From the NCBI GenBank assembly GCA_046598345.1, contig JBKJIT010000004.1:69702-133701 (forward strand): a stretch of 64,000 nt of DNA. The letters run 5' to 3'. Below, one piece after another: positions 3,465-58,905 of this stretch (position 1 is the first letter of the stretch; every line of letters starts with the position of its first letter). Both the position numbers and the translations under genes were made by a program. Under the pieces are notes generated by a model. The model was not told the DNA's origin. It saw only the letters and a list, made by a program, of their open reading frames with translations, and made no database searches. The DNA comes from Minisyncoccia bacterium. GTDB lineage: Bacteria; Patescibacteriota; Minisyncoccia; Phycocordibacterales; UBA918.

Positions 3465-4040
3465 GTGTGGACGTATCATAACAATTTGTCAGATGAAGTG
3501 AGATGCTATACTTCACGAATGAATATAATACCTAATCGTATGGAAATCGAGGAAGAACTGAGAGTCAGTAGCGCTGCACTTAAAGTAATTTCTCAGGGAG
3601 TGGTGATTTCAAGGGCGGACCAGTTAATAATTTCAACGAATGTTGCTTTTGCAGACATAACGCAATATTCAATCGAGGAAATCGTGAATAAAAATTGCAG
3701 ATTCCTTCAAGGTCCACTTACCAATATGGAAACAGTACGATCTATACATGATGCACTCAGTAGTGGAAAGGAGTTTGAAGGTGAAATCCTAAACTACCGG
3801 AAAGACGGTACTACTTTTTGGAATGAGCTTACCATTTCTCCTATACATAATGAGCAAGGCGAAATAACTCATTTTATCGGTATCACACGTGATATTACCC
3901 TTCGGAAAAATTTGCAAGACAAATTGGCGGTACAATTGGATCAAGTAGAGAAACTAAATAAATTTATGCAGGATAGAGAGCTCAAGATGATTACACTGAA
4001 GAAGGAAATTGAAGCTTTAAAAGCAGCAAGTCAGAAATAG
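3465..4040 (+). CDS. LOV-domain (PAS) blue-light sensor with C-terminal coiled coil; no output domain
   Basis: Canonical flavin-adduct motif NCRFLQG (Cys codon 3696-3698) within a PAS fold (...GEILNYRKDGTTFWNELTISPIHNEQGEITHFIGITRDIT); true start probably Met at 3519 or 3540. Confidence 0.7.
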   Translation: MWTYHNNLSDEVRCYTSRMNIIPNRMEIEEELRVSSAALKVISQGVVISRADQLIISTNVAFADITQYSIEEIVNKNCRFLQGPLTNMETVRSIHDALSSGKEFEGEILNYRKDGTTFWNELTISPIHNEQGEITHFIGITRDITLRKNLQDKLAVQLDQVEKLNKFMQDRELKMITLKKEIEALKAASQK

Positions 4041-4179
4041 TGTTTCAACAAGTAACGCTACTCTTTCTGACGAGATAAAGGGCTTTTGATCTTTATACTA
4101 CCCACCTTCAAATATCCTTCACAGAGCGGAGCGGTAAAAGACGCTTTATCAAATTACTTTAGTTTGATATTGTCTAAGC

Positions 4180-12383: not shown

Positions 12384-12521
12384 ACACTACAACTCATTAG
12401 AAGCCATAGTGCTGTCTCAGGTACGCGGAGGCGAGTCATGAAAACAGGAGACGTATGTCTATACGATGACTGTTCGAATGATGAAGTCAACAAAGTAGAT
12501 GGGCGGCAGTATGGCTTCTAA

Positions 12522-14411
12522 CTAGATAATCCGGTCAGGATTGATAACAATCCGAATAGAAGGCGGCAACTCACGAAGCGTCGCAGCAAGTTGTTGGTCA
12601 GGCCACTTATTTGGCGGCAATCGAATGAGTCCAAACTGCATCACTGCACCTTTTGGTGGAAAGGAAGAATTATAAATTGAAATACCATACGGGGCGAGAA
12701 CGGTCTTGATTAGATTTTCCATTTTTTCTACAACATCTTTTTGTCCTTGCCAGGTAAGGTGAACGAAAGTTGCGAAAGGGGGGTACGAGAATGTCTTCCG
12801 AAGCTCGAGTTCTTCGTTATAAAATTGCTCAATCGAACCGCGCGCTGCGAGATCAATGAGTGAGCGTTCTTTTGTTCGCGCCTGCACGTACACCGTCTGC
12901 TTGGTAAGTTCTCGAAGCTTGAGGAGAAGGGCAAAATTCTCTTCTTGAAGTCGCCACGTTGGTGTCGCATTAAGAGAGTCCATATTGACGACGATCGATA
13001 CATCGATCGGCTCATGAATGTACGGCAGCGCCATCGTCGTTCCAATCATGATTGATCCCTTGGTGTTGTAAAACGTATGCGCAAGAAACATTGCTTTCTT
13101 GTGTGTGCTTGCAGTCGTGTGATCGAACAGCGTGATTGCAGTTTTGGGAAGCAGTTTTCCGAGTTCATCATGCACATACTGAATTCCTATGCCGCGTTCA
13201 CGTAGTCGCCACGACCCACACTCATCACAGGTATCCTGCGCCCGCTTCCTTTCGCCGGAGGAAGGGCAGACGAACCAGCGTTCCTCAACTCCATTTTTGT
13301 TTGTTCGTATGAGGGAATACGGCGCGCCACTCTCTTCAGACCTGAAGATATACCCACAGTCGAGACAGGCAACGACGGGCGAGAGACCGCGCCTCGCAGC
13401 AAACAAGAAGACGTGCCCCCTTTTCTTTAAGACTTCTTTAATAGCTTCGATAACCTTGGGAGAAAAGAGTTTAAACGGAGTCGTACCATCTAATTTTTCC
13501 TGCATCAGCACGAGTTCAAGTTTCGCTTTGGTCTCAATGCGTTTTGGATTTTCACCGTAGGTTTGGTACTCATCCGTGCGCCGCATGTATTCTTCTTCGC
13601 TTCGAGGTACGATGTCGGCCATAATGATTCTTCTTCCCGCGTGCTTTGCGTGTACACGATGGACTTCTCGATAATCAAGGTAGGGACGTACCAACTCTTT
13701 GTAATAGGGTGACCGAGCACACTCCATAATAACGAGTGTGATGTCATGGCGTTCGAGAAGGGAATGGGAAGGTGTAGCGATTATAAGTTTTGGTTTACTA
13801 AAGTCATCGAGCGCTTCGTATGCAGCGCGCATATGTGGTTTCCCCATTGTGCTCGTGAGGAGAATCGTGCGGTCGACAATACCCGGGGAAAGATATTTGA
13901 AGAGTTCGTTCGCTTCGCCCGAAGTTGGCACCACACAGACCACCGAACCGCTATGCGCAAATGTCTCGCGGACGAGAGAGCGGTAGGAAAGGTAGCGCTC
14001 TCTCGAATGTGCGGTGAGAACTTCAGGAGTGAATGTCTCAGTTGGTATGACGTGATGGGTATGAGGTAGGGGAATTTCTCCGTTTCGAATATCAGGCGGC
14101 AAAAGGTTATAGAGAATCGCTCCCACGCTCGACGCGTAATAGAGCGACAGTTCTTCAGCTGTTTGTATGTACGCAGGAGAAAGACTTTGCACATTTTCTT
14201 GCGGAGGTAGTTTCTTAAGAGAAAACGTGGCAGCGCGGAGTGCTGTTTTTGCACCGCTCACTTCCTCGGTTCGAGTTACCACCCCCAGAAAAGATTGATT
14301 TCGTACGGGAATCGTAAGAACCGTGCCACATTCATACTTCGTTGCGGAGTAGTAGGAAAGCGTATCAATCTGTACACCGCGTTTAAGTGGAATGACGTCG
14401 ATTACGAACAT
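12522..14411 (-). CDS. priA: Primosomal protein N' (PriA helicase)
   Basis: 629 aa; helicase motifs; Cys-rich zinc region (CLDCG...CPSSGE...CDECG); priA-def-fmt order is conserved in bacteria. Confidence 0.8.
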   Translation of the reverse strand: MFVIDVIPLKRGVQIDTLSYYSATKYECGTVLTIPVRNQSFLGVVTRTEEVSGAKTALRAATFSLKKLPPQENVQSLSPAYIQTAEELSLYYASSVGAILYNLLPPDIRNGEIPLPHTHHVIPTETFTPEVLTAHSRERYLSYRSLVRETFAHSGSVVCVVPTSGEANELFKYLSPGIVDRTILLTSTMGKPHMRAAYEALDDFSKPKLIIATPSHSLLERHDITLVIMECARSPYYKELVRPYLDYREVHRVHAKHAGRRIIMADIVPRSEEEYMRRTDEYQTYGENPKRIETKAKLELVLMQEKLDGTTPFKLFSPKVIEAIKEVLKKRGHVFLFAARRGLSPVVACLDCGYIFRSEESGAPYSLIRTNKNGVEERWFVCPSSGERKRAQDTCDECGSWRLRERGIGIQYVHDELGKLLPKTAITLFDHTTASTHKKAMFLAHTFYNTKGSIMIGTTMALPYIHEPIDVSIVVNMDSLNATPTWRLQEENFALLLKLRELTKQTVYVQARTKERSLIDLAARGSIEQFYNEELELRKTFSYPPFATFVHLTWQGQKDVVEKMENLIKTVLAPYGISIYNSSFPPKGAVMQFGLIRLPPNKWPDQQLAATLRELPPSIRIVINPDRII

Positions 14412-14452: not shown

Positions 14453-14493
14453 GAGCCCGGCAAGGAAAATGTAGATTTTTCCTTGCCGGGCTC
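14453..14493 (-). terminator. Rho-independent terminator of the XRE gene
   Basis: gagcccggcaaggaaaa...ttttccttgccgggctc, long hairpin. Confidence 0.6.
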
Positions 14494-16471: not shown

Positions 16472-17551
16472 GTGGTGTTGATAGATGAGTCACGGGCTAG
16501 TAAATTGTCAAAAAACAGATACCATATGAAGCATTGTATGTTCCAACGTCTCATTCCTAAAGTTGGTATCGATTTAGGTACCACGAATATTCTCGTCTAC
16601 ATACCAGGTAAGGGCATCGTCCTTAATGAGCCTTCAGTCGTTGCAGTTTCTGACTCAAACCAAATTCTTGCGGTGGGTGCTGAGGCAAAGCGTATGATCG
16701 GGCGTACACCGGACACCATCCGTGCGTATCGTCCAATGAAAGACGGTGTGATCGCCGATTACCGTGTAACGGAGGCAATGCTTCGCTATTTTCTTAAAAA
16801 AAGTTTAGGGAGCTACAATTTCTTTAAACCTGAAGTGATGGTGTCCGTGCCCGCGGGAGTGACTTCAACTGAAAAACGCGCGGTAGTGGAGGCTGCGATT
16901 AAAGCTGGCGCACGAAATGCCTACGTCGTGAAGGAGCCGATTCTTGCAGCAATAGGCGCTAACCTTCCTATATATGAAGCGCAGGGACACATGATCGTGG
17001 ACATTGGTGGAGGAACGATTGACGTCGCGGTCATCTCCTTAGGAGGTATTGTTGTCTCAAACTCAGTGAAGTGCGCGGGGAATCGCATTGATGCTGCAAT
17101 TACGGACTATGTAAAGAAAATTCACAATCTCTCTATCGGTGAAAAGACGGCTGAAGATATTAAAATTCAAATAGGGTCAGCACTTCCACTTGAGGAGGAG
17201 TTGCCTATGGAAATAAAAGGGCGCGATCTTTTTTCTGGGCTGCCGCGCACTGTCGAGATAAAGACAAACGAAGTGGTGCGGGCGATCTCTCGTGAGCTCC
17301 ATGAAATGATCAAAGCAATTAAAGACGTCTTTCAAAACACACCACCCGAGCTTGCGTCAGATATTATTGATTGCGGCATTATTATGACCGGGGGCACATC
17401 TCAACTTCGCAATTTTCCTGAACTGGTCAAACGTCGCACGGGAGTGAAGGCAACCTTGGCTGACCAGGCGCTCTTTTGCGTCGTGAAGGGGACTGGTATT
17501 GCACTAGAACATTTAAACGCCTACAAAAAAACCATTATCGCCAAGCGTTAA
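16472..17551 (+). CDS. mreB: Rod shape-determining protein MreB (actin-like), paralogue 1
   Basis: 'VGIDLGTTN...', 'VDIGGGTIDVAVISLGG', 'IIMTGGTSQLRNFPELV'; true start probably Met at 16526 or 16538. Confidence 0.8.
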   Translation: MVLIDESRASKLSKNRYHMKHCMFQRLIPKVGIDLGTTNILVYIPGKGIVLNEPSVVAVSDSNQILAVGAEAKRMIGRTPDTIRAYRPMKDGVIADYRVTEAMLRYFLKKSLGSYNFFKPEVMVSVPAGVTSTEKRAVVEAAIKAGARNAYVVKEPILAAIGANLPIYEAQGHMIVDIGGGTIDVAVISLGGIVVSNSVKCAGNRIDAAITDYVKKIHNLSIGEKTAEDIKIQIGSALPLEEELPMEIKGRDLFSGLPRTVEIKTNEVVRAISRELHEMIKAIKDVFQNTPPELASDIIDCGIIMTGGTSQLRNFPELVKRRTGVKATLADQALFCVVKGTGIALEHLNAYKKTIIAKR

Positions 17552-17667
17552 AATTGTGGCATCTACTTTGTTGCATTCGTCGTGCAGGCAGTCATCGTAT
17601 AGTTTTATACGCCTCCTGCCTACACTCCTCTGCGCCTCGTATCTGACACAAAATTTTAACGCTTGGC
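17540..17667 (+). repeat. Stop-codon-adjacent hairpin-flanked element, copy A (after mreB)
   Basis: Conserved core 17556-17651 (CTACTTTGTTGCATTCG...CGTATAGTTTTATACG...GCGCCTCGTATCTGACAC) flanked by a perfect 16-bp inverted repeat, gccaagcgttaaaatt / aattttaacgcttggc, overlapping the mreB stop. Confidence 0.6.
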
Positions 17668-23909: not shown

Positions 23910-25004
23910 ATGTCAATTCTTATTTTTATTGCCGTGCTTTTTGCGCTCGTTCTCGTGCATGAATGGGGACATTTTTTTGTTGCAAAGAAGACAGGTATGC
24001 GTGTGGATGAATTCGGTATTGGTTTTCCTCCAAAGCTTTTTGGGATTAAAAAGGGGGAGACACTCTACTCTATAAATGCGCTGCCGATTGGTGGGTTTGT
24101 TAAAATTTTCGGAGAAGATGCAGTTGTGGGAGAGGGAGAAACTTCACAAAGTGGATCCTTCACTTCTAAAAGTAAGTGGGCTCAAACAGCGGTGCTCGTT
24201 GCTGGAGTTGGAATGAACATTCTCTTCGCGTGGTTTTTGTTTGTGATTGCGCTCAGTGTTGGAGTTGAGTCCGCGGTGAGTGAAGCGGAGGCTGGTCCTG
24301 ATGCGAGACTCATTGTTTCCCAAGTGCTTCCTGATTCTCCTGCAGCACTCGCAAAGATTCCAACAGGTGCCATCATTACGAGCGTACAAGATAGCGAGGG
24401 CAATACTCCGAGCGCGCTGTTCCCTTCAGCATTTAGTGAATTTGCAACCTCGCACGGCACAGAAATGCTCACCATCACCTATCAGGTGGGGGATGAAATG
24501 TTCCTCACAACCCTCTCGCCCAAACAGGGAATTATTGCCTCAGATCCAGAGCGTGCGGCGATTGGTGTGCAACTCACTACTATTGAAGTTGTGCGCGAGC
24601 CATTCCATAAAGCTATTACGAAGGGTTTCATGCTTACGGTTACGAGTCTCAAAGAAATCACCGTTGGTATGTGGGGACTTCTTCGCGACGCCGTTACCCT
24701 TAAGGCTGACCTCACGAACGTCGCAGGGCCAGTCGGTATTGTGGGGATGGTGGGCGAAGCGTCCGCTCTTGGCGTGACGTCACTCGTTATGTTTACTGCG
24801 TTCATCTCGCTTAATCTCGCTGTCATTAACCTACTCCCGTTCCCAGCACTCGATGGAGGACGACTTCTATTCGTCATCATTGAAGCGGTGAAACGCTCTC
24901 CGATTAATCCCCGCTATGTCATGATACTTAATACTGTTGGATTTATGATGCTTATGGCTTTGATGGCGGCTATTACCTGGAACGACATCGCTAAAATAAT
25001 CTAA
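23910..25004 (+). CDS. rseP: RIP metalloprotease RseP (site-2 protease, M50) with PDZ domain
   Basis: HExxH 'VHEWGHFFVAKK', PDZ region, C-terminal 'NLLPFPALDGGRL' motif. Confidence 0.85.
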   Translation: MSILIFIAVLFALVLVHEWGHFFVAKKTGMRVDEFGIGFPPKLFGIKKGETLYSINALPIGGFVKIFGEDAVVGEGETSQSGSFTSKSKWAQTAVLVAGVGMNILFAWFLFVIALSVGVESAVSEAEAGPDARLIVSQVLPDSPAALAKIPTGAIITSVQDSEGNTPSALFPSAFSEFATSHGTEMLTITYQVGDEMFLTTLSPKQGIIASDPERAAIGVQLTTIEVVREPFHKAITKGFMLTVTSLKEITVGMWGLLRDAVTLKADLTNVAGPVGIVGMVGEASALGVTSLVMFTAFISLNLAVINLLPFPALDGGRLLFVIIEAVKRSPINPRYVMILNTVGFMMLMALMAAITWNDIAKII

Positions 25005-25119
25005 ATCGCGAGAAAGTATCATCTACTTTGTTGCTTTCGCCATTCACGCATTCACCGTATGTATATACGGCTCACGTGTTAATAGCTTAGCGCCTCGCAT
25101 CTAATACCTTCTCGCGATT
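25004..25119 (+). repeat. Stop-codon-adjacent hairpin-flanked element, copy B (after rseP)
   Basis: Core CATCTACTTTGTTGCTTTCGCC...CCGTATGTATATACGG...GCGCCTCGCATCTAATACC flanked by aatcgcgagaa / ttctcgcgatt inverted repeat. Confidence 0.6.
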
Positions 25120-25343
25120 CAGAAACATACACTTAGGTTATCGCAAACAGTTGGTAAATCCGGCAGTGGCTGGAGCAAATCGAAAGTATCAACGCGTCTA
25201 AGGTCCGTAGGAAAGACAAAAGATCTATACTACAGGCCTTTTGTTATTGTATTTTGACCCTTCCTTCAGTTCCGAGGTAGAATGCTGGGGCAGATGGAGG
25301 TATACACCCCTGTGCGCTTTTATTGTTAACCAACATTTTCATG

Positions 25344-28857: not shown

Positions 28858-30542
28858 GATTTTTTAAGAAAAAAAGGAAGGCCGAAATTTCATTCGATGA
28901 GATTCTTCTCGATTCATCAAATTTACCCTCGTTTAATGTAAGTCGCATGGAGGGTCGTATCGAACTGCCACTTGCGGAAAAGAACATTGCAATTGTGGGT
29001 GTCCTTTTTGGTATTATTGCCCTCGTATTTTTTTCACAGACATATAAGTTGCAGATCATAGAAGGAGCGACCCTCACGGAAAAGAGCAATGCAAATATGC
29101 TTGCGGAGAGTCTGATTGTCGCCCCACGTGGCACTGTGTATGACCGGATGGGTGAACTTGTGGCATGGAATGAAATTGATCAAACAGGGCAGTATGATTT
29201 CCCGGTTCGTGCATATACCGACCGGCGCGGATTCGGCCAACTTATTGGGTATGTGAGCTATCCGCAGAAGGATTCTTCTGGGTTCTATTTCAGAAATGAA
29301 TACATTGGCCGAAATGGGGTTGAGGAAACGTATAACGATATCCTGGCTGGAATAAATGGTGAACGAAATGTGGAAATGAATGCGCTTGGCGAAGTTATTT
29401 CTGAAAATAAAGTACATAGTGAAATACCTGGAAAAGAAATTACGTTATCAATCGACGCAGCACTTAGTGAAGTGATGTATGACCTCATAGCAACAACGAC
29501 AGAGACAAATGGGTTCCGGTCGGGTGCTGGAGCGATTATGAACGTGCATACGGGAGAAATTATCGCGCTTTCCAGTTTCCCATCCTACGATCCTGAAGTC
29601 CTTGCAGACGGTGATGAAGTGGCGCTCATTAATTCGTACAATGCCGATTCACGGTTTCCGTTTTTAAATAAAGTTGTGGGGGGCGCATATGTTCCGGGCT
29701 CTATTGTTAAGCCTTTTATGGCGTACGGAGCGCTTAAAGAGAACATCATTGATCCTATGAAGATCATTGTGAGTAATGGTGCGCTCGTGCTGCCGAATAA
29801 GTATGATCCAGAAAAACCCACGGTCTTTAAGGACTGGCGAGTGCAAGGCCCCATGACAATGCGGGACGCAATAGCGTATTCCTCGAATGTGTATTTCTAC
29901 ACGATTGGAGGCGGGTTTGAAGGGCAGGAGGGGCTCGGAATCACACGCATATATAAGTACATGAAACTCTTCGGTCTCGGAGAAAAAACAGGCATCGCGC
30001 TTTCAGGTGAACAAAAAGGAACGGTTCCAAATCCTGAGTGGAAAGAAAAGATATTTCATGATGATTGGCGACTCGGGGACACGTACCACACCTCAATCGG
30101 GCAGTATGGTTTCCAGACTACGCCCCTTCAAATGCTTCGCGCATACGCGGCGATCGCCAATGAAGGTACGCTCGTCACGCCACACGTTGTTAAAGGTGAG
30201 CAGGGTGCAGAGAAAGACATTGCACTTGATCTAGGTGATCTTAAAGTGGTTACCGACGGCATGCGACAAACTGTAATTCAAAATGGGGGTACTGCTCGTT
30301 CACTTGAACGAAAGGATCTTGCGATTGCTGCTAAATCAGGGACTGCTGAGCTTGGAAATGATAACGCGCAGGTAAACTCTTGGATTGCTGGGTATTTCCC
30401 GTATGAGAAACCTGAATATGCCTTTGTTCTTTTCATGGAAAATGGCCCAAGGTCAAATATGGTTGGTGCAGGGTCGGTGATGGGAAAGGTTTTTGATTGG
30501 ATGGCTACAAACCGCCCCGAATATTTTGAACAAAGCCTGTAA
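28854..30542 (+). CDS. mrdA: Penicillin-binding protein 2 (elongasome transpeptidase)
   Basis: SxxK 'SIVKPF', SxN 'SSN', KTG 'KSGTA'; follows mreBCD. Confidence 0.8.
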   Translation: MRFFKKKRKAEISFDEILLDSSNLPSFNVSRMEGRIELPLAEKNIAIVGVLFGIIALVFFSQTYKLQIIEGATLTEKSNANMLAESLIVAPRGTVYDRMGELVAWNEIDQTGQYDFPVRAYTDRRGFGQLIGYVSYPQKDSSGFYFRNEYIGRNGVEETYNDILAGINGERNVEMNALGEVISENKVHSEIPGKEITLSIDAALSEVMYDLIATTTETNGFRSGAGAIMNVHTGEIIALSSFPSYDPEVLADGDEVALINSYNADSRFPFLNKVVGGAYVPGSIVKPFMAYGALKENIIDPMKIIVSNGALVLPNKYDPEKPTVFKDWRVQGPMTMRDAIAYSSNVYFYTIGGGFEGQEGLGITRIYKYMKLFGLGEKTGIALSGEQKGTVPNPEWKEKIFHDDWRLGDTYHTSIGQYGFQTTPLQMLRAYAAIANEGTLVTPHVVKGEQGAEKDIALDLGDLKVVTDGMRQTVIQNGGTARSLERKDLAIAAKSGTAELGNDNAQVNSWIAGYFPYEKPEYAFVLFMENGPRSNMVGAGSVMGKVFDWMATNRPEYFEQSL

Positions 30543-30641
30543 ATGTGTGCAGCTCTTTGTTGCACTCCGCTAAATAATTTTCAGCGTATAGAAATACGTC
30601 TCAAATACTGTTGCTCGTACGCGCAGTCTCCACAAATGTAC
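30539..30641 (+). repeat. Stop-codon-adjacent hairpin-flanked element, copy F (after mrdA)
   Basis: CAGCTCTTTGTTGCACTCCGC...CGTATAGAAATACG...CTCGTACGCGCAG, flanked by gtaaatgtgtgcag / ctccacaaatgtac imperfect inverted repeat that includes the TAA stop. Confidence 0.5.
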
Positions 30642-30822
30642 GGGCTTTGATGAGATGTTTCCCTAAACGAGAGTCATTTCTATGGGTGTTTGACTTACAT
30701 CCACCGCTACGTATAATTGTTGCAATCCGTTAGAGATTTTTGAGAAACGTGAGGACGTTTTAAGAGGTTAACGGGACATTAGTCATCACAACGGATCTCT
30801 AACACATAACGTAAAAAAAATT

Positions 30823-31296
30823 ATGACAGAGCCACATGATTCATTTCTAACACAAGAGAAGTTTGAACAGCTTAAAGCGGAGCTCGAACATTTGAAGACG
30901 GTGCGAAGAAAGGAAGTGGCAGAATCGCTTGAGTACGCACGAAGCTTGGGAGATCTCTCAGAAAATGCTGAGTACCAAGAAGCACGCGATATGCAGGTAG
31001 CGATCGAAGAGCGCATTCAGTATCTCGAGAAAGTGATCAAGGAGGCGAAGATTGTGGCACACATAACGAAGGGTGATGTTGTTGGTCTGGGCTCTCTTGT
31101 AACAATTCAAAAAGCAGATACGCCGGAAAGTCGTTCATATACGATTGTTGGTTCAGAAGAGGCAAACATTCATGAGCACAAACTCTCATACCTTTCTCCA
31201 CTCGGAGAAGCGCTCATGGGAAAGGCGAAAGGAGACGACTTCGAATTTGTCACGCCAAACGGAAAGCAGAACTACAAGATACTTAAAGTCAGTTAG
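30823..31296 (+). CDS. greA: Transcription elongation factor GreA
   Basis: 'LTQEKFEQLKAELEHLKTVRRKEVAESLEYARSLGDLSENAEYQEARDMQ' coiled-coil plus FKBP-like C-terminal domain. Confidence 0.9.
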   Translation: MTEPHDSFLTQEKFEQLKAELEHLKTVRRKEVAESLEYARSLGDLSENAEYQEARDMQVAIEERIQYLEKVIKEAKIVAHITKGDVVGLGSLVTIQKADTPESRSYTIVGSEEANIHEHKLSYLSPLGEALMGKAKGDDFEFVTPNGKQNYKILKVS

Positions 31297-31304
31297 AAAT
31301 GATG

Positions 31305-31342
31305 AAAAGCACCGGCGACAAAGTCGCCGGTGCTTTTCATTT
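31305..31342 (+). terminator. Rho-independent terminator after greA
   Basis: agcaccggcgac-aa-gtcgccggtgct + TTTCATTTTC. Confidence 0.8.
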
Positions 31343-31369
31343 TCTTCATAAAACGATACTATAACGGTC

Positions 31370-32824
31370 ATGTCCGGACTTGATGATATGCGCGCTGAGC
31401 GCGTGAAGAAACTCAACTTGCTAACAGCACGAGGAATTAATCCGTATCCTGCACGAAGTAGCCGGACACACACTATAGCGGACGCACTCGCAGGATTTGA
31501 ATTACTCGCCGCGAAGGGCGACGCAATTGTGCTCGCCGGACGCATTATGGTGGTGCGAGGGCAGGGTGCAATCTTCTTTGCAGATTTTGATGATGGAACG
31601 GGAAGATTTCAGGCTGTACTTAAGGAAGATGAAATGGACAAGGAAAAGTTTGATCTTTTCAAAGATGCTATCGATGCGGGTGATTTTGTAGAAATCACAG
31701 GCACACTCTTTGTTACCCAAAAAGGTCAGCAATCCATTCTCGTGAAGGATTGGACGATCCTTACGAAAAGCCTTTTACCGCTTCCAGATAAATACCACGG
31801 TCTGCAAAATGAGGAAGAACGTTTTCGAAAGCGATATCTTGATTTACTGGTAAATCCTGAACTTCGCGAAATGTTTGCACGCAAAGAAAAATTCTGGCAT
31901 GTAACGCGCTCATTCATGAAAGCAAAAGGTTTTCTCGAAGTGGAAACGCCAACACTCGAGCTTACGACTGGCGGAGCAGAGGCCCGGCCGTTTAAGACGC
32001 ACCACAATGATTTTGACATTGATGTATTCCTCCGTATTTCTGTTGGAGAACTTTGGCAGAAGCGCCTTATGGCGGCAGGATTTCCAAAGACATTTGAAAT
32101 TGGACGCACTTTTAGAAATGAAGGTACGAGCCCCAACCATCTACAAGAATTTACCAACATGGAATTCTATGAGGCTTATGCAAATTATGAAAACGGAATG
32201 GATCTCGTGGAAGAACTGTATACGACGATTGCAAAAGAGGTGTACGGGAGAACGGAGTTTACGCACGGGGATCATACATTTGATTTGAGTAGCGAATGGG
32301 TACGTGTTTCGTATAGTGAAGAGATTCTTCGCCAGACTGGGATTGATACAGTCTCCGCAACGGAGGATGAAATTAAAGATACACTCCGCGAGCTCAATGT
32401 GTCATACGAAGGGGATACCAAAGAACGACTCCTTGATACACTTTGGAAATATTGCAGAAAAAATATTGCCGGCCCTGCGTTTCTCGTCAACCATCCAAAG
32501 CTTGTTTCTCCACTCGCGAAAGAAGTTGAAGGTGACGAAACAAGTACACAAAGGTTTCAGCCGATCATTGCTGGTACCGAGGTGGGGAATGGATATTCAG
32601 AACTAAATAATCCTGAAGAGCAGCGTAAACGATTCGAGGTGCAACAGGATCTCCTCAAAGGAGGTGATGAGGAAGCGATGATGGCGGATCATGAATTTAT
32701 TGAAATGCTCGAACATGGTATGCCACCTGCGTGCGGATTTGGTTTTGGTGAACGACTTTTTGCAATTTTAGAAGGGAAGCCAATCCGAGAGACACAGCTG
32801 TTTCCGCTCATGCGTCCTAAATAA
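31370..32824 (+). CDS. lysS: Lysine--tRNA ligase (class II)
   Basis: OB-fold N-terminal domain, class II motifs (FLEVETP, FRNEG, GFGFGERL). Confidence 0.9.
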   Translation: MSGLDDMRAERVKKLNLLTARGINPYPARSSRTHTIADALAGFELLAAKGDAIVLAGRIMVVRGQGAIFFADFDDGTGRFQAVLKEDEMDKEKFDLFKDAIDAGDFVEITGTLFVTQKGQQSILVKDWTILTKSLLPLPDKYHGLQNEEERFRKRYLDLLVNPELREMFARKEKFWHVTRSFMKAKGFLEVETPTLELTTGGAEARPFKTHHNDFDIDVFLRISVGELWQKRLMAAGFPKTFEIGRTFRNEGTSPNHLQEFTNMEFYEAYANYENGMDLVEELYTTIAKEVYGRTEFTHGDHTFDLSSEWVRVSYSEEILRQTGIDTVSATEDEIKDTLRELNVSYEGDTKERLLDTLWKYCRKNIAGPAFLVNHPKLVSPLAKEVEGDETSTQRFQPIIAGTEVGNGYSELNNPEEQRKRFEVQQDLLKGGDEEAMMADHEFIEMLEHGMPPACGFGFGERLFAILEGKPIRETQLFPLMRPK

Positions 32825-32925
32825 GCAAATGCACTAATCTGCTTCGTTGTCTTTTTTTTGCTTAAACAGTCACCGTATACGCATACGCCTCTTGTTTGTT
32901 TCGACGCATTGCATCGCATCAGATT
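32825..32925 (+). repeat. Stop-codon-adjacent conserved element, copy E (after lysS)
   Basis: GCTTCGTTGTC...CAGTCACCGTATACGCATACGCCTCTTG closely resembles copy A (CAGTCATCGTATAGTTTTATACGCCTCCTG); flanking inverted repeat is weak here. Confidence 0.4.
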
Positions 32926-33036
32926 TTTCGTATTTTGAACAGAAATTGACATTCTATATAAATATTGTATCATATTGTCAGGTGCACTTCTATATTAGTA
33001 GTAAACCCTGTTTCCAATCTTTAATAGGAGGACGTA

Positions 33037-37294: not shown

Positions 37295-38587
37295 ATGAAA
37301 TCACTTTTTAAAAAAATTGTTGTTGCGCTCATTACTCTGGAGGCAAAAGCGCTTCTTCGTCGGACTAAGCCGGTCATTATTGCTGTAACCGGAAGCGTTG
37401 GAAAGACATCGGTTAAAGATGCGATTTATTCAGTGTGCAAGAATCATGTGTACACGAGAAAGAGCGAAAAAAGTTTTAATTCAGATATTGGAGTTCCTCT
37501 TACCGTGCTCGGACTTCAAAATGCGTGGAGCAATCCATTTCTTTGGATAAAGAACATTGTGGACGGTGCTATGCTCGCACTCCATCCGCACGATTACCCG
37601 AAGCTCCTCATTCTTGAAATGGGGGTTGATCGCCCTGGAGACATGGACAAGCTCACCTCGTGGATTAAGCCAGACGTCGTTGTGCTCACGAGGCTTCCTG
37701 ATGTGCCTGTGCATGTTGAATACTTTGAATCCCCAGAGCAAGTCATTGAGGAAAAGGTTAAACTTGTTGCGGCCCTTAAACCCGATGGTGTTTTTGTCTA
37801 TAACCAAGACGATGAAAAGGTACTCAAAGTTGCGGAGGGTGTGATTACGCGGAAGATAGGGTACAGCCGGTATTCACTTTCTCCGTACACTGCTTCCGCA
37901 GATCGGATCGTGTATGAGAATGGTACGGCTGTTGGCTTTGAGTTTACACTCACTCATCTCAATACAGCTAAGATTATGCGTGTGAACGGCTCTCTGGGAA
38001 TCCAGCATGCATATAATTATGCAGCAGCAACTGCGGTTGGTTCTATTTTTGATGTGGGACTCGATGATGTGGATGTGGCACTTCGTGAGCATGTTCCGCC
38101 AGCCGGTCGCATGCGCCTTCTTTCTGGAATTAAAGATACACTCATTATTGATGATACGTATAACGCTTCTCCGGTTGCGTGTGAGCAAGCGCTTCAGACA
38201 CTCAGGGAATTAAAAGGGGTGCAGCGAAAAGTCGCTATTTTAGGTGACATGATGGAACTTGGTCAATTTTCAATCAAAGAACATGAGCGTATTGGAAGGC
38301 TCGCGGCGGCGTCGTGCGACCTCCTCATTACTATGGGTGTGCGTGCACGCGGGTTCGCAGAAGGCGCACTTGAAAATAGCATGTCCGAGAAAAGTATTCT
38401 TCAGTATGATGATACAGAAAGTATTCGACGAGAGATTGAATCTCTTATAAAACAGGGCGACGCAATACTCGTGAAAGGTTCACAATCCATTCGAGGGGAA
38501 CGCATAGTTGAAGAAATTATGGCTGAGCCTGATAGAAAAGATGAGCTGCTTGTGCGGCAGAGTGAGGTCTGGCGTTCGATCGCTTAG
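37295..38587 (+). CDS. murF: Mur ligase, most likely UDP-MurNAc-tripeptide--D-Ala-D-Ala ligase
   Basis: P-loop 'IIAVTGSVGKTSVK', Mur ligase middle and C-terminal domains, dcw position; MurE versus MurF not fully resolved. Confidence 0.65.
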   Translation: MKSLFKKIVVALITLEAKALLRRTKPVIIAVTGSVGKTSVKDAIYSVCKNHVYTRKSEKSFNSDIGVPLTVLGLQNAWSNPFLWIKNIVDGAMLALHPHDYPKLLILEMGVDRPGDMDKLTSWIKPDVVVLTRLPDVPVHVEYFESPEQVIEEKVKLVAALKPDGVFVYNQDDEKVLKVAEGVITRKIGYSRYSLSPYTASADRIVYENGTAVGFEFTLTHLNTAKIMRVNGSLGIQHAYNYAAATAVGSIFDVGLDDVDVALREHVPPAGRMRLLSGIKDTLIIDDTYNASPVACEQALQTLRELKGVQRKVAILGDMMELGQFSIKEHERIGRLAAASCDLLITMGVRARGFAEGALENSMSEKSILQYDDTESIRREIESLIKQGDAILVKGSQSIRGERIVEEIMAEPDRKDELLVRQSEVWRSIA

Positions 38588-38696
38588 AATTCATTTAAAA
38601 GCCCATCTTCTTCCTTCAAACATTCATCATATGTGCTATATGTCTCATGTTTTCAGTCCTTGATTCCTCGTACCTGAGACTTTTAATAAATTCTAA
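38584..38696 (+). repeat. Stop-codon-adjacent hairpin-flanked element, copy D (after murF; most diverged)
   Basis: Flanking inverted repeat ttagaattcatttaaaag / cttttaataaattctaa; internal CATATgtgctATATG hairpin; 3' box GATTCCTCGTACCTGAGAC matches copy C (GATGCCTCGTACCTGAGGTC). Confidence 0.45.
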
Positions 38697-48062: not shown

Positions 48063-48089
48063 GCTCCATTGGTCAGCCCTATGACAACA
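48063..48089 (+). repeat. 27-bp motif GCTCCATTGGTCAGCCCTATGACAACA (copy 1), left boundary of the KaiC cassette
   Basis: 26/27 identical to copies at 55979, 56034 and 56531; contains the stop codon of the GAF kinase. Confidence 0.6.
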
Positions 48090-55976: not shown

Positions 55977-56090
55977 TAGCTCCATAGGTCAGCCCTATGA
56001 CAACAGAAAAAATTAATACGTCAAGATTTGTTAGCTCCATAGGTCAGCCCTATGACAACAGAAAAAATTAATACGTCAAGATTTGTGACC
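55977..56090 (+). repeat. Two tandem 57-bp units, each beginning with the 27-bp GCTCCATAGGTCAGCCCTATGACAACA motif
   Basis: 55977-56033 and 56034-56090 near-identical; third copy at 56530-56586. Confidence 0.7.
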
Positions 56091-56246
56091 TCCCGGAAAA
56101 TCGGGGTCAAGTTCCTAAGCTCGTTGCGACTCGCTAAGAACTTTCTCCCCGGTCTCCCTCGAGTAGGCTCTCAGTCCGACTTTCGATTCTCCTGGACTAA
56201 AATAGTAAAACCCCGCACAAGGCGAGGCTTTACTATTTCAGTGACC
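56085..56246 (+). repeat. Distal copy of ~160-bp unit: degenerate tRNA-Glu 3'-end copy (gtgacctcccggaaaatcg) + terminator-containing segment
   Basis: Near-identical to 56582-56737; ends with a partial 'gtgacc'. Confidence 0.6.
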
Positions 56247-56339
56247 CAATAGCGTGGCTTTCAGAACTTTATAAGGACCAACAATATATCAAATCGAGTA
56301 TTCAGTTATTAAGCGATTTTGTATCTTAATGATGTGTGA

Positions 56340-56537
56340 CTATAGAGAGTTATATGCCTCAACTTGATTATCATATTCAAACTTCACCATCTGAAAGTTC
56401 ATACCCCACTTATTTTTTGCTTTTACCATAATGTTTGGGTGCGCTGTTTGAGCCATTACCCAATCATATGCCTCAACTTGATTATCATATTCAAACTTCA
56501 CCATCTGGTAGTTGTCACCCCATTTTTGTAGCTCCAT
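56340..56537 (-). CDS. doubtful small ORF with internal repeat (YQMVKFEYDNQVEAY x2)
   Basis: 41-bp DNA direct repeat at 56353 and 56468; start codon lies inside the 27-bp motif; may be non-coding. Confidence 0.15.
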   Translation of the reverse strand: MELQKWGDNYQMVKFEYDNQVEAYDWVMAQTAHPNIMVKAKNKWGMNFQMVKFEYDNQVEAYNSL

Positions 56538-56581
56538 AGGTCAGCCCTATGACAACAGATAAATTTAATACGTCAAGTTTT

Positions 56582-56737
56582 GTGACCTCACGGAGAATCG
56601 GGGTCAAGTTCCTAAGCTCGTTGCGACTAGCTAAGAACTTTCTCCCCGGTCTCCCTCGAGAAGGCTCTCAGTCCGACTTTCGATTCTCCTAGACTAAAAT
56701 AGTAAAACCCCGCACAAGGCGAGGCTTTACTATTTCA
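56582..56737 (+). repeat. Proximal copy of ~160-bp unit beginning with an exact 19-nt copy of the tRNA-Glu 3' end
   Basis: gtgacctcacggagaatcg at 56582-56600 equals 56738-56756; remainder equals 56104-56246. Confidence 0.6.
56703..56724 (-). terminator. Rho-independent terminator just 3' of tRNA-Glu
   Basis: On - strand: CCTCGC-CTTGT-GCGGGG + TTTT; duplicated at 56204-56225. Confidence 0.55.
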
Positions 56738-56738
56738 G

Positions 56739-56810
56739 TGACCTCACGGAGAATCGAACTCCGATTTGCTGGATGAGAACCAGCTGTCCTAACCGTTAGA
56801 CGATGAGGCC
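56739..56810 (-). tRNA. tRNA-Glu (anticodon CUC)
   Basis: Manual fold: acceptor GGCCTCA/TGAGGTC, D-arm TCGTCTAACGGTTAGGACA, anticodon stem-loop GCTGG-TTCTCAT-CCAGC, T-arm CGGAG-TTCGATT-CTCCG, discriminator A; no encoded CCA. Confidence 0.8.
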
Positions 56811-57045: not shown

Positions 57046-58758
57046 ATGGACTCCTGTATACTAGAGGACATGACACAGAAACAGGCGCTTGAGATACTTA
57101 AAACGGGAGCAAATGTGTTCCTAACCGGAGAACCCGGAGCAGGAAAGACGTATGTTCTGAACGAGTACATCGAGTGGCTCATGGACCACGACATCAGTGT
57201 GGCCATTACCGCATCGACCGGAATCGCAGCGACGCATATTGGCGGTATGACTATCCACTCGTGGAGTGGTATTGGCGCGAGAGACACCTTGAATCAGTAC
57301 GACTTAGACGCAATCATCAGCAAAGAAAAAACCATGAAGCGTCTTCAGAAGGCGAAGGTCTTGGTGATTGATGAAATCTCCATGCTCGATGGGAGGGTGC
57401 TCGATATGGTCGAAACAGTGTGCCGGGTTGGCCGGGGAAATGGAGATTCGTTTGGTGGACTCCAAATCATTCTCGTTGGGGATTTTTTTCAGCTGCCACC
57501 AATCGCAGGGAGGGGAGAGATGTCTCGTTTTGCGTTTGAGTCACGCTCGTGGGAAAGTGCAAAATTCCTCACGAGTTATCTCACAGAGCAGCATCGCCAA
57601 GAAGACGATCTCCTCCTTGGGCTTCTGTCGTCCATCCGCAAAAATGACGTTGAGGAATCTCACTACACACTCCTTTCTGAGCAAACAGAAATTGGGTTTC
57701 CTGATATCGAACCTACGAAGCTCTACACGCACAACAGCGATGTCGATGCGGTCAATTTAGAAAAACTGCGAGGGCTCACCACTTCTGGTGCAACATTCAA
57801 AATGGCTGCACGAGGGAATAAGCAGCTCCTCGTTGGACTCGTAAAGAATTGCCTCTCACCCGAAGTACTCGAACTCAGAAAGGATGCGATGGTGATGTGT
57901 ACGAAGAATAATTTTGAGGTTGGGTATGTAAACGGAACACTCGGTCGTGTCACCGCTTTTGACAAGGAAGACGGGTACCCAATTATCGAGACGAGTGACG
58001 GACGTTCGCTTAAGATTTTACCGACTACGTGGACTATCGGAGAAGATGGAAAGCTTCTCGCTGAGATTTCTCAGGTACCACTTCGTCTTGCGTGGGCTAT
58101 CACGATACATAAGAGTCAGGGAATGTCGCTCGACGCTGCTGAAATTGATCTTCGGAATGCGTTCACGTACGGGCAAGGCTACGTTGCGTTATCACGTGTA
58201 CGCACACTTACGGGGATGAAAGTGCTCGGTCTTAACTCCCAAGCGCTTCTTGTGGATCCTCGGGTCGTGCATCGTGACGCGCGCTTCCGCGAGGAGTCAG
58301 AAGATGGTGAGTCTGCGTTCAATGAAATGGAAGAAGGCGAGATCGAGGGTATGCAAAAGAGCTTTGTACTTGCAACTGGTGGCACATGGGAAGTTGAAGA
58401 GAGAAAGGAGCGTGGGAATCGTGCTGTTTCCTCTCGCCTTGAAAAAGAAAACACCTTTCTTACCACTAAAGCCCTCATTGAAAAGAGACTTACTCCTGAG
58501 GCTATTGCACGCGAGCGAAAAATGGCACTTTCCACTATTTGGTCACACATCGAAAAGCTTTCCGACGAAGGGGCAATTTCAAAAGACGACCTTCAGGGTC
58601 TCATTCCATCAAACATTTCGTGGCCCGCGATTTACCCAGACATCGCCTCCGCATTTCTGAAACACGGCACAGAAAAACTTAAGCCAGTCTATGAAGAGCT
58701 CAAGGAGGCGTATGATTATGATTTAATTCGCCTTGGACGTATTCTCTACAAGAAATAA
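57046..58758 (+). CDS. Pif1/RecD-family ATP-dependent DNA helicase with C-terminal HTH-like domain
   Basis: Walker A 'LTGEPGAGKTY', Walker B 'VLVIDEISM', 'ILVGDFFQLPP', 'ITIHKSQGMS'. Confidence 0.7.
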   Translation: MDSCILEDMTQKQALEILKTGANVFLTGEPGAGKTYVLNEYIEWLMDHDISVAITASTGIAATHIGGMTIHSWSGIGARDTLNQYDLDAIISKEKTMKRLQKAKVLVIDEISMLDGRVLDMVETVCRVGRGNGDSFGGLQIILVGDFFQLPPIAGRGEMSRFAFESRSWESAKFLTSYLTEQHRQEDDLLLGLLSSIRKNDVEESHYTLLSEQTEIGFPDIEPTKLYTHNSDVDAVNLEKLRGLTTSGATFKMAARGNKQLLVGLVKNCLSPEVLELRKDAMVMCTKNNFEVGYVNGTLGRVTAFDKEDGYPIIETSDGRSLKILPTTWTIGEDGKLLAEISQVPLRLAWAITIHKSQGMSLDAAEIDLRNAFTYGQGYVALSRVRTLTGMKVLGLNSQALLVDPRVVHRDARFREESEDGESAFNEMEEGEIEGMQKSFVLATGGTWEVEERKERGNRAVSSRLEKENTFLTTKALIEKRLTPEAIARERKMALSTIWSHIEKLSDEGAISKDDLQGLIPSNISWPAIYPDIASAFLKHGTEKLKPVYEELKEAYDYDLIRLGRILYKK

Positions 58759-58884
58759 TTTTAAGACTCAGCTACTTTGTTATCTTCGTCATTCAAAACT
58801 TATGTAGTTCGTAAAACATGCCCCCATCATGTTTTACTGCCTCAGCTTTTCTTTCCTCGATGCCTCGTACCTGAGGTCTTAAAA
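58759..58884 (+). repeat. Stop-codon-adjacent hairpin-flanked element, copy C (after helicase)
   Basis: AGCTACTTTGTTATCTTCGTC...GTAAAACATGcccccatCATGTTTTAC...GATGCCTCGTACCTGAGGTC flanked by ttttaagactcag / ctgaggtcttaaaa. Confidence 0.55.
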
Positions 58885-58905
58885 TGATTTCTTGTTAGTA
58901 TAGAT

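Follow-up and report, generated by a model that had tools for sequence, protein, structure and literature searches.

Seven copies of a hairpin element in the window

We analyzed a stretch of 64,000 nucleotides from a Minisyncoccia bacterium (contig JBKJIT010000004.1 of assembly GCA_046598345.1), called the window below, and found that it carries seven copies of a hairpin element, each placed behind a gene. An earlier note, made from the sequence alone, had described six of them, after mreB, rseP, mrdA, lysS, murF and a helicase-like gene, each with a 5' box, a central CGTATA...TATACG (or a compensated variant) and a 3' box. We found all six where the note had placed them, with these parts as described. 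The note had also stated that all six follow plus-strand genes. This is true, but a seventh copy follows a minus-strand gene. The orientation of the element thus tracks its own gene and not the window.

Copies were located with a covariance model (R1) trained on 41 copies from other genomes and on the mreB, rseP and 629-aa-gene copies of the window. Run unfiltered on the window, R1 recovered the six noted copies and one more; nothing else was significant. The three training copies had E-values of ~1e-14 to 3e-19, and the four copies outside the training set had E-values of 3e-8 to 1e-6. The copies are listed here with their R1 scores, minimum free energies (MFE) and fold z values; sense is the strand of the gene that the copy follows.

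12392..12521, minus strand: seventh copy, arms TTAGAAGCCATACTGCCG / CAGCACTATGGCTTCTAA, directly after the stop (TAG, 12524-12522) of a gene for 629 aa (12522-14411, minus strand); R1 74.9 bits; MFE -53.3 antisense (z -7.3), -35.2 sense
17540..17667, plus strand: mreB copy, basal helix GCCAAGCGTTAAAATTGTGG / CACAAAATTTTAACGCTTGGC, stop TAA (17549-17551) inside the left arm; R1 94.6 bits, E 3e-19; MFE -49.3 sense (z -6.9), -63.3 antisense (z -9.4)
25000..25123, plus strand: rseP copy, arms TCTAAATCGCGAGAAAGTATCA / TAATACCTTCTCGCGATTCAGA, stop TAA (25002-25004); R1 85.3 bits; MFE -33.8 sense, -59.5 antisense
30531..30649, plus strand: mrdA copy, eroded, arms CAAAGCCTGTAAATGTGTG / CACAAATGTACGGGCTTTG, stop TAA (30540-30542) inside the left arm; R1 39.9 bits, E 1e-6; z -3.0
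32825..32935, plus strand: lysS copy, degenerate, core recognizable, basal helix mostly gone and without a basal-helix score; R1 45.4 bits, E 6e-8; z -0.3 and -0.2
38584..38696, plus strand: murF copy, arms TTAGAATTCATTTAAAAG / CTTTTAATAAATTCTAA, stop TAG (38585-38587) inside the left arm, 5' box partly deleted; R1 46.5 bits; z -3.7
58748..58895, plus strand: copy after the helicase-like gene (570 aa), arms ACAAGAAATAATTTTAAGAC / GTCTTAAAATGATTTCTTGT, stop TAA (58756-58758) inside the left arm, a longer hairpin GTAAAACATG...CATGTTTTAC in place of the usual apical one; R1 42-50 bits; z -5.6

The copies are dispersed, 2-20 kb apart, and are 28-64% identical to one another. Three of the seven (murF, mrdA and lysS) are eroded. 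At mrdA, the C-terminal tail of the protein past RPEYF differs between relatives.

Sigma-70-like promoters lie 10-130 nt downstream of three copies, at 30690-30717 (TTGACT-16-TATAAT), 25254-25283 (TTGACC-18-TAGAAT) and ~32945 (TTGACA-16-TATCAT). Because of these strong downstream promoters, the element stands at an operon boundary in those three cases. The greA and proS promoters are kept in relatives.

The element forms a family in Patescibacteria

We found that the element is widespread outside the window. Copies were detected with R1 or with sequence patterns in genomes and metagenomes of Patescibacteria (the Candidate Phyla Radiation, CPR). The available loci of relatives (numbered with L) are stretches of 8-20 kb each. 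The composite pattern consists of the 5' box, a gap, TCANCGTAT, a loop and ATACG. In the window it matched three times (0.00 expected from shuffles), and the 5' box alone, with up to three mismatches, matched four times (0.24 expected); the seventh copy is among these matches.

More than 200 further copies were found by R1 or by the patterns. In a collection of species-representative genomes, the composite pattern detected 43 loci in approximately 30 genomes, and R1 run on 365 kb of loci from this collection together with the window gave 64 copies. The titles of these records name Kaiser-, Zambryski-, Lloyd- and Paceibacteria, Parcubacteria, generic Patescibacteria, "Saccharibacteria" or plain "bacterium", with two exceptions. 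We suspect that these two records, which carry non-CPR names, are mis-binned contigs. A second pattern that makes no use of the 5' box matched at least 120 metagenome contigs, including eight stretches of one 963-kb contig. The 5' box was recovered in 93 of the 99 copies of this independent metagenome set, which had been ascertained without it. Chance or low-complexity matches are ruled out by this recovery, by the shuffles, and by the R1 matches to the four untrained window copies.

The element matches no RNA family in Rfam. Rfam 15 at gathering thresholds found one tRNA and no other family in the whole window. Between 12.3 and 38.8 kb, a region with six of the copies, no copy was matched on either strand even at E<=10; the only matches were four weak ones within 31192-31428. 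Known families, including the self-cleaving ribozymes, were rejected on these grounds. Viral contigs were scanned and had zero matches, and a phage origin was rejected on this basis. We found no description of an element of this sort in CPR bacteria in the full-text literature, as far as the searched collection reaches.

The closest relatives of the window MreB and RseP are in Patescibacteria metagenome-assembled genomes (MAGs) named as Kaiserbacteria, Nomurabacteria, Minisyncoccia and Paceibacterota. Across several candidate phyla, as named in MAG titles, the loops and the architecture of the element are kept. These results indicate a family of ~130-bp hairpin elements that is apparently uncatalogued and is confined to Patescibacteria, in genomes of the Parcubacteria/Paceibacteria type.

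A single long hairpin with covarying helices

Each well-preserved copy forms a single long imperfect hairpin of ~130 bp. Going inward from P1, the basal helix, there is first a 2x2 loop and a 3-bp helix, next a 3x3 loop and a 5-bp helix that has a bulge, then a ~6x6 loop and a 10-bp helix whose sequence is free, and last a 4x4 loop and the apical hairpin CGTAT(A)...(T)ATACG. The 3-bp helix is UAC/GUA, with variants UUC/GAA and GAC/GUC. The core inside the basal helix is thus ~85 nt and comprises three helices and the apical CGTAT hairpin, with conserved internal loops between them. What the earlier note described as conserved boxes are these internal loops with the adjoining short helices.

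We found that all helices evolve through compensated changes. When the structure was drawn on 44 sequences, 85% of the cells were paired. Double-sided changes of pairs occurred in 218 cells, compared to 73±7 after column shuffles and 53-73 when the partners were slid by 1-3 columns. The copies form a genuine family with a conserved core within a covarying outer stem, as the earlier note had seen it in the window.

The basal helix is part of the element

We found that the basal helix belongs to the element and is not a locus-specific palindrome. We scored the pairing of the two arms of each copy and used as controls the left arms paired to the right arms of other copies. Six of the seven window copies scored 22-37, and the 95th percentile of the controls was 13. 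This percentile was exceeded by 92% of copies in the genome set and 94% in the metagenome set. The flanking repeats and the bias to gene 3' ends hold in 92-94% of more than 150 copies from other genomes, so that the check by which the earlier note could have been refuted went in its favor. The inverted repeat reported around each copy is real in all window copies except the degenerate one at lysS, but its arms are approximately 22 nt and not 11-18 bp. The mode of the helix length is 22 bp; 49 of 56 copies have 20-25 bp, and in the second set 67 of 87 have 20-24 bp.

The arms have a fixed layout, seen in 154 copies. The clamp at arm positions 1-5 reads A,C,C,C,C. At positions 7-11, A accounts for 60-71% in the left arm and T for 45-75% in the right arm. 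The sequence is free at positions 12-17, and at positions 18-21 the left arm has purines (AGAG/AGAA) and the right arm pyrimidines. Read inward from its outer end, the helix has the purine end, ~6 free base pairs, an A5/T5 tract and the C/G clamp. T is enriched immediately outside the left arm, yielding TAG.

Arms also recur at different loci. AGAGCCTACCCACAAA is found at ten sites (some of them orthologous) in three genomes, and the arm AGAGCATGT..AAAA follows rseP in L055 and another gene in L016. Arm pairs scoring at least 10 numbered 26, compared to 0.3 expected. Only 4% of arm pairs score at least 8, and most are unrelated. The statement that the arms differ completely between loci therefore holds for most window copies, but the arms are not free, as families of them recur after unrelated genes. 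The outer arms of most window copies differ because the helix drifts fast by compensated changes, and not because of their origin at a locus.

Two copies with identical cores at different loci have the whole helix in common apart from one compensated pair (A-T to G-C), and their similarity stops exactly at the helix ends. No consistent direct target duplication was found when the flanks of 56 copies and of paralogous pairs were compared. A TA target or target-site duplication was also rejected; TA is present on both sides only in a subset, with no consistent direct repeat. Thus, the element is a discrete unit that ends at the outer ends of the basal helix and has no conserved terminal repeat. 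[quoted passage not shown]

The same note had proposed insertion into palindromes specific to each locus. In a related explanation, only the ~85-nt core would be mobile (or gene-converted) and would land in the loops of palindromes already present behind genes; in a variant, the right arm would be re-templated from the left flank. The local terminators are palindromes of 17-24 bp that begin 0-17 nt past stops, and their outer pairs, A-tract and GC stem are arranged as in the element. In approximately half of the pairs formed by copies with similar cores, the helices agree only over the inner 6-8 bp. The perfect 16-bp inverted repeat noted at mreB is also as described. Its left arm consists of native codons (the C-terminus IIAKR* is present also in relatives without an intact copy), and its right arm complements these codons at 16 of 16 positions. 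Based on this match, templated repair or arm replacement probably happens at some copies such as that at mreB, and a target-templating step there is a minor possibility. As a general account, however, landing in existing palindromes is very doubtful. Unrelated genes, in one genome or in different ones, can be followed by the same outer arms; the outer helix moves together with the element; and the arms have a fixed length of ~22 bp with the A/T tract and the purine end at fixed positions. Window copies have no T-run outside the right arm. At the empty mreB site of a close relative (L051), the 56-bp spacer holds just a 5-bp hairpin.

The left end of the element faces a gene boundary

We found that, as a general rule, the left end of the element lies against a gene boundary. 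This boundary is the stop codon of a gene that reads toward the element in ~70% of copies; in the others it is the end of a tRNA or a start codon. In 44 of 62 copies of the genome set, a co-oriented open reading frame (ORF) of at least 90 aa has its stop within a few nt of the left end, in agreement with the reported anchoring at gene 3' ends. The distance from the stop to the 5' box is 19-23 nt in most copies (19-22 nt in 40 of 61 copies of the metagenome set). The stop lies deeper within the left arm in ~18% of copies, in the window in those at mreB, mrdA and the helicase-like gene. TAG is the stop of 48% of the abutting genes, compared to 32% of other long ORFs (p=0.026), which fits the T+AG end of the element.

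Where a tRNA adjoins the element, it does so at the left side in all nine cases. In seven, the tRNA is encoded on the opposite strand and its 5' end is -1 to 7 nt from the element, and in two the element begins 2 nt past the tRNA 3' end. A few copies adjoin the start of an opposite-strand gene, one lies in the 5' untranslated region (UTR) of mraZ, and another lies between a terminator-like hairpin and the next promoter. Orientation set by replication was ruled out by convergent side-by-side copies and by the minus-strand copy of the window.

Copies in tRNA leaders are preceded by sigma-70-like promoters (TTGACA-18-TATAAG in L046; TTGAAA-17-TAAATT in L070). From this arrangement, transcription of the antisense strand of these copies is very likely, and RNase P would release the RNA.

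Two loci have copies side by side. At L046 4318-4595, two tail-to-tail copies fill the 285-nt spacer between two plus-strand tRNA-Ser genes; one transcript across this spacer would carry a copy in each sense. At L075 ~3650-3780, a second copy lies in tandem and in the same orientation directly beside the copy that abuts tRNA-Ala.

Close relatives differ in the presence and placement of the element

We found that the element is gained, lost or differently placed between close relatives. In L051, whose MreB is 89% identical to that of the window, the sites after mreB and after the gene for 629 aa are both empty. After mreB, L056 retains a remnant of the element that has expanded. The rseP site of L055 is occupied, as is that of the window, but its copy belongs to another subfamily and has a different basal helix. 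L057 has canonical A7-stem-T7 terminators after rseP and lysS in place of the element. In the lysS-mraZ spacer, copies are found at three different positions and orientations in three genomes. L052 and L053 have another long hairpin after mreB.

These other hairpins have no R1 match (L052 11040-11130; L053 11040-11135 and 11170-11250). One has a 25-bp stem (GCGGCGATGACATGCAATTTTGAAG) around a 34-nt center, and another has a 24-bp stem (CCCTCACAAGGGCAAAAAATTGTG). They may represent further families of similar style. In L055, the closest relative, a tandem repeat of the heptamer TAGCAYT (~7 units, 4008-4055) directly follows the mreB stop.

The fold is under selection on the antisense strand

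We found that the fold is under selection on the strand antisense to the abutting gene. On the sense strand of the gene, the mismatches in the helices are mostly C·A and A·C, which are U·G and G·U wobbles on the other strand. A·C mismatches outnumbered G·T mismatches 83 to 9 in P1 of the genome set, 46 to 6 in P1 without the clamp, 85 to 22 in the variable pairs of the model (inner helices and P1 clamp), and 58 to 12 in the independent metagenome set. The share of the G·T type was 11.5%, compared to 40-60% predicted from the pair composition for neutral drift of either arm.

The predicted stabilities show the same asymmetry. The antisense strand was more stable in 59 of 61 copies (mean -51.3 vs -39.5 kcal/mol, p=1.6e-11) and, for the second set, in 93 of 95 (-56.6 vs -45.5 kcal/mol), or 152 of 156 copies in both sets together. 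For the three best window copies, the fold z was -9.4, -9.4 and -7.3 on the antisense strand and -6.9, -4.3 and -3.9 on the sense strand. The conserved loops of the antisense strand are purine-rich, with a potential for tandem G·A pairs (GA/GA, GAG/AAA, CGAGGA/GACGAA and GAGN/RUGA), and those of the sense strand are pyrimidine-rich. Copies with reversed sense, in tRNA leaders, keep the same intrinsic asymmetry.

As a control, we examined 79 ordinary post-gene hairpins in the same loci. On their sense strand there were 8 G·T and 5 A·C mismatches. These hairpins have no excess of A·C, and therefore the asymmetry belongs to the element and not to the genomes. The control, together with the drift expectation, rules out a mutational or repair bias of post-gene palindromes as the source of the A·C mismatches. 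The positive GC skew of the window also argues against a G-to-A pressure on the sense strand.

These results bear on whether the element acts in the mRNA of its neighbor, as a 3'-UTR terminator, a block to 3' exonucleases, an RNase III site, or a self-cleaving ribozyme with a free P1. Several properties are consistent with such a role: ~70% of copies have the stop at or inside the left arm, with a constant spacing of 19-23 nt to the 5' box; behind the C/G clamp comes a U-tract whose position (7-11) is fixed, an arrangement also seen in intrinsic terminators; orthologous sites without the element carry canonical terminators (A-tract, stem, T-tract); and the sense-strand fold is still stable, at a mean of -39.5 kcal/mol. 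However, the mismatches on the mRNA strand are A·C and not G·U, an excess that ordinary terminators of the same loci do not have. The fold of the mRNA strand is 11-12 kcal/mol weaker, with pyrimidine-rich loops. The outer 11 bp of the helix lie past the U-tract and so would be missing from a terminated RNA. No Rfam or ribozyme family matched, and copies also occur in reverse sense in tRNA leaders, in a 5'UTR, and in the spacer between a terminator-like hairpin and the next promoter. Because the fold is kept opposite the neighboring gene, the element is probably not a simple mRNA tail element, and we consider a cis-acting element of the host mRNA quite unlikely as the explanation. The ribozyme or 3'-UTR element suggested in the earlier note is not borne out by these data.

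The wobble pattern and the stability both favor the antisense strand, and they would also suit a structured noncoding RNA made from that strand: a rod-like, protein-binding scaffold with purine-rich tandem-G·A loops, closed by the 22-bp helix. Such an RNA could be a substrate for RNase III or other processing, or could act on the 3' end of a convergent gene or as a leader. In independent lineages, the antisense strand lies between a sigma-70-like promoter and a tRNA and ends ~5 nt before the mature 5' end. The conservation of loop sequences across several candidate phyla points in the same direction. So does the comparison of L017 and L026, two genomes in which an orthologous gene is followed by a copy: the cores are ~90% identical and the basal arms about half diverged, and pairing on the antisense strand is kept. 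Against this explanation, ~70% of copies lie antisense to a pair of co-directional genes; there is no terminator past the element in the antisense direction, so that transcription would enter the gene; and in close relatives some copies have decayed or disappeared. An antisense promoter dedicated to the canonical copies was also rejected: the signal was not enriched over shuffles (best score 7.3 vs 7.5, in a weak test against the sigma-70 consensus), and no shared flanking motif was seen. We regard an antisense noncoding RNA as rather unlikely.

A hairpin element that may move through a single-stranded form

We tentatively favor a hairpin element that is discrete and duplicative, passes through a single-stranded intermediate, behaves like REPs or MITEs, and belongs to no known family; we hold this to be possible rather than probable. 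Because the fold is kept on the antisense strand, we infer that it would be needed by a single-stranded intermediate and not by the host mRNA. The functional form would be the antisense strand in single-stranded state, either as a DNA hairpin or as RNA made in that direction. A hypothetical structure-specific enzyme would copy or move the element through this form without target duplication, in a mode akin to that of the HUH/Y1 systems (REP-RAYT, IS200/IS605) or of single-strand systems of the attC type. Insertions might survive only at "safe" sites, right behind stop codons or beside tRNAs, where the element could supply TAG or TAA and a hairpin with a U-tract, replacing the ordinary terminator. 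The clamp and U-tract at fixed positions, and the replacement of canonical terminators at orthologous sites, suggest that the inserted element probably serves as the hairpin or terminator of its gene.

Several observations weigh against this reading. No transposase, HUH nuclease or recombinase was seen beside copies; this was directly examined only at L033, where the paired copies enclose ordinary genes, so that a transposase between paired copies was rejected. Copies within a genome are old; a copy usually has its closest match outside its own genome, and this does not resemble a recent burst. The reading does not account for the left end facing the gene, a rule that replication direction cannot set. 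A pure cut-and-paste or copy model fails at mreB, where the right arm complements native codons. About half of the similar-core pairs have only the inner base pairs in common. The pairing kept in L017 and L026 despite the divergence of the arms would also fit a function at the level of the host.

The element might also represent a new, CPR-specific class that acts on single strands: a hairpin shaped like a rod, functional on the strand opposite the gene at which it is docked. One form of this would be a hairpin transposon able to rebuild or mend its basal helix of 22 bp by copying the flank, as at mreB; the other would be a set of dozens of antisense or leader RNAs per genome with one protein-binding scaffold and a programmable 22-bp stem. 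We think this unlikely.

The genomes of CPR bacteria are very small and densely packed, and hardly any experiments have been done on these organisms. The element is at approximately one in nine gene ends in the window, and it is either a major part of the gene-end machinery or a highly successful parasite of streamlined genomes. The strand asymmetry provides a testable handle on which strand is made and what binds the purine loops. R1 is a ready covariance model for the annotation of CPR genomes, where these stretches of 130 bp at present make intergenic regions look longer and can lead to wrong calls of gene ends and terminators.

Other features of the window

The canonical terminators of the window are long perfect palindromes, of 19 bp (31301-31341, plus strand) and 17 bp (14453-14493, minus strand). 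They include their own A/T tracts and begin 4-12 nt past the stop. The two weak Rfam matches at 31277-31342 ('sraA/CsrC') overlie the greA terminator.

The region 55977-56743 contains a direct repeat of 220 nt (56027-56246 and 56524-56743, 95% identical). A unit of 27-61 nt (GCTCCATAGGTCAGCCCTATGACAACA...) occurs four times, in 55977-56743 and at 48063-48089. The last repeat reaches a tRNA gene (56739-56810, minus strand), and the repeats beside it may be a scar of integration or duplication.

Comparison with known systems

We found that the element fails the defining features of REPs and REPINs, attC sites, MITEs, PATEs, TIGR units and every Rfam family. It has likenesses to several of them.

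Intrinsic (bidirectional) terminators resemble the element in their position right after the stop and in the A- and T-tracts that flank a GC clamp at fixed positions, and the element replaces canonical terminators at orthologous sites. The element differs in having an 85-nt core with conserved loops instead of a short loop and a stronger hairpin on the antisense strand. In addition, its sense-strand clamp is only ~5 bp and lies below a mismatch loop, and pairing runs 11 bp past the U-tract.

PATEs, which derive from IS200/IS605, have separate subterminal hairpins at both ends and insert 3' of a fixed tetra- or pentanucleotide. In contrast, the element is one hairpin, with no fixed flanking oligonucleotide beyond the frequent T before AG.

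Bacterial MITEs with long hairpins (Correia/NEMIS, ERIC/IRU, RUP and the Rickettsia RPE) have conserved terminal inverted repeats and direct target duplications, and some supply stop codons, promoters or RNase III sites. The element is like them in its size range (100-150 bp), in being multicopy and located between genes or at gene ends, and in forming long RNA hairpins. It is unlike them in that its termini are variable except for the purine end, and no target duplication was found.

TIGR arrays are found in CPR bacteria and phages, in tandem beside a gene for the Nop-domain protein Tas, and have variable dual spacers in their loops (PMC12045711). They and box C/D RNAs share with the element the CPR hosts and hairpin units with variable palindromic stems and short conserved internal-loop motifs (PMC12045711). 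The element is dispersed and its loops are conserved, and no pair of box C (RUGAUGA) and box D was seen. Based on this difference in architecture, TIGR-Tas and box C/D units were ruled out.

The geometry of the element resembles that of integron attC sites. These sites, such as the Vibrio VCRs, are imperfect palindromes after an ORF, often over its stop, that are folded on the bottom strand and in which structure matters more than sequence. To our knowledge, attC is the one well-known case of an imperfect palindrome behind an ORF with a selected fold on the bottom strand. The likeness is in geometry only: in the element, too, the fold is selected on the bottom strand, with the ORF taken as reference. 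The attC core sites R'' and R' (RYYYAAC / GTTRRRY) are not visible by eye at the base of the element, where the ends are AGAG.../...CTCT or variable, with no GTTRRRY at the right end. The conserved part of the element is internal and not basal, its neighbors are syntenic housekeeping genes (mreB, rseP, mrdA, lysS and murF) and not cassettes, and no integrase was seen at its loci.

REP, BIME and REPIN sequences are multicopy extragenic palindromes found behind genes, without target duplication, and are mobilized by RAYT, an HUH (Y1) transposase. REPs are GC-rich sequences of 20-40 bp with a conserved stem and a GTAG or CGTC tag, and a REPIN is an inverted doublet of REPs with a variable spacer. 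No RAYT gene was seen in the available 8-20-kb loci, of which one (L033, with ordinary genes between its paired copies) was directly inspected. The element is ~130 bp, with variable ends and a conserved center, especially in the internal loops, and REPINs are the reverse. Its copies are old and do not form near-identical populations as those of REPINs do. The tag GTAG is present on its antisense strand, but within a covarying helix (UAC/GUA and variants). REP hairpins are recognized in a strand-specific manner as single strands, tolerate G·T in the stem, and can stand in for terminators or stabilizers of mRNA. Like REP, BIME and REPIN sequences, the element is extragenic, lies behind genes, forms hairpins and makes no target duplication.

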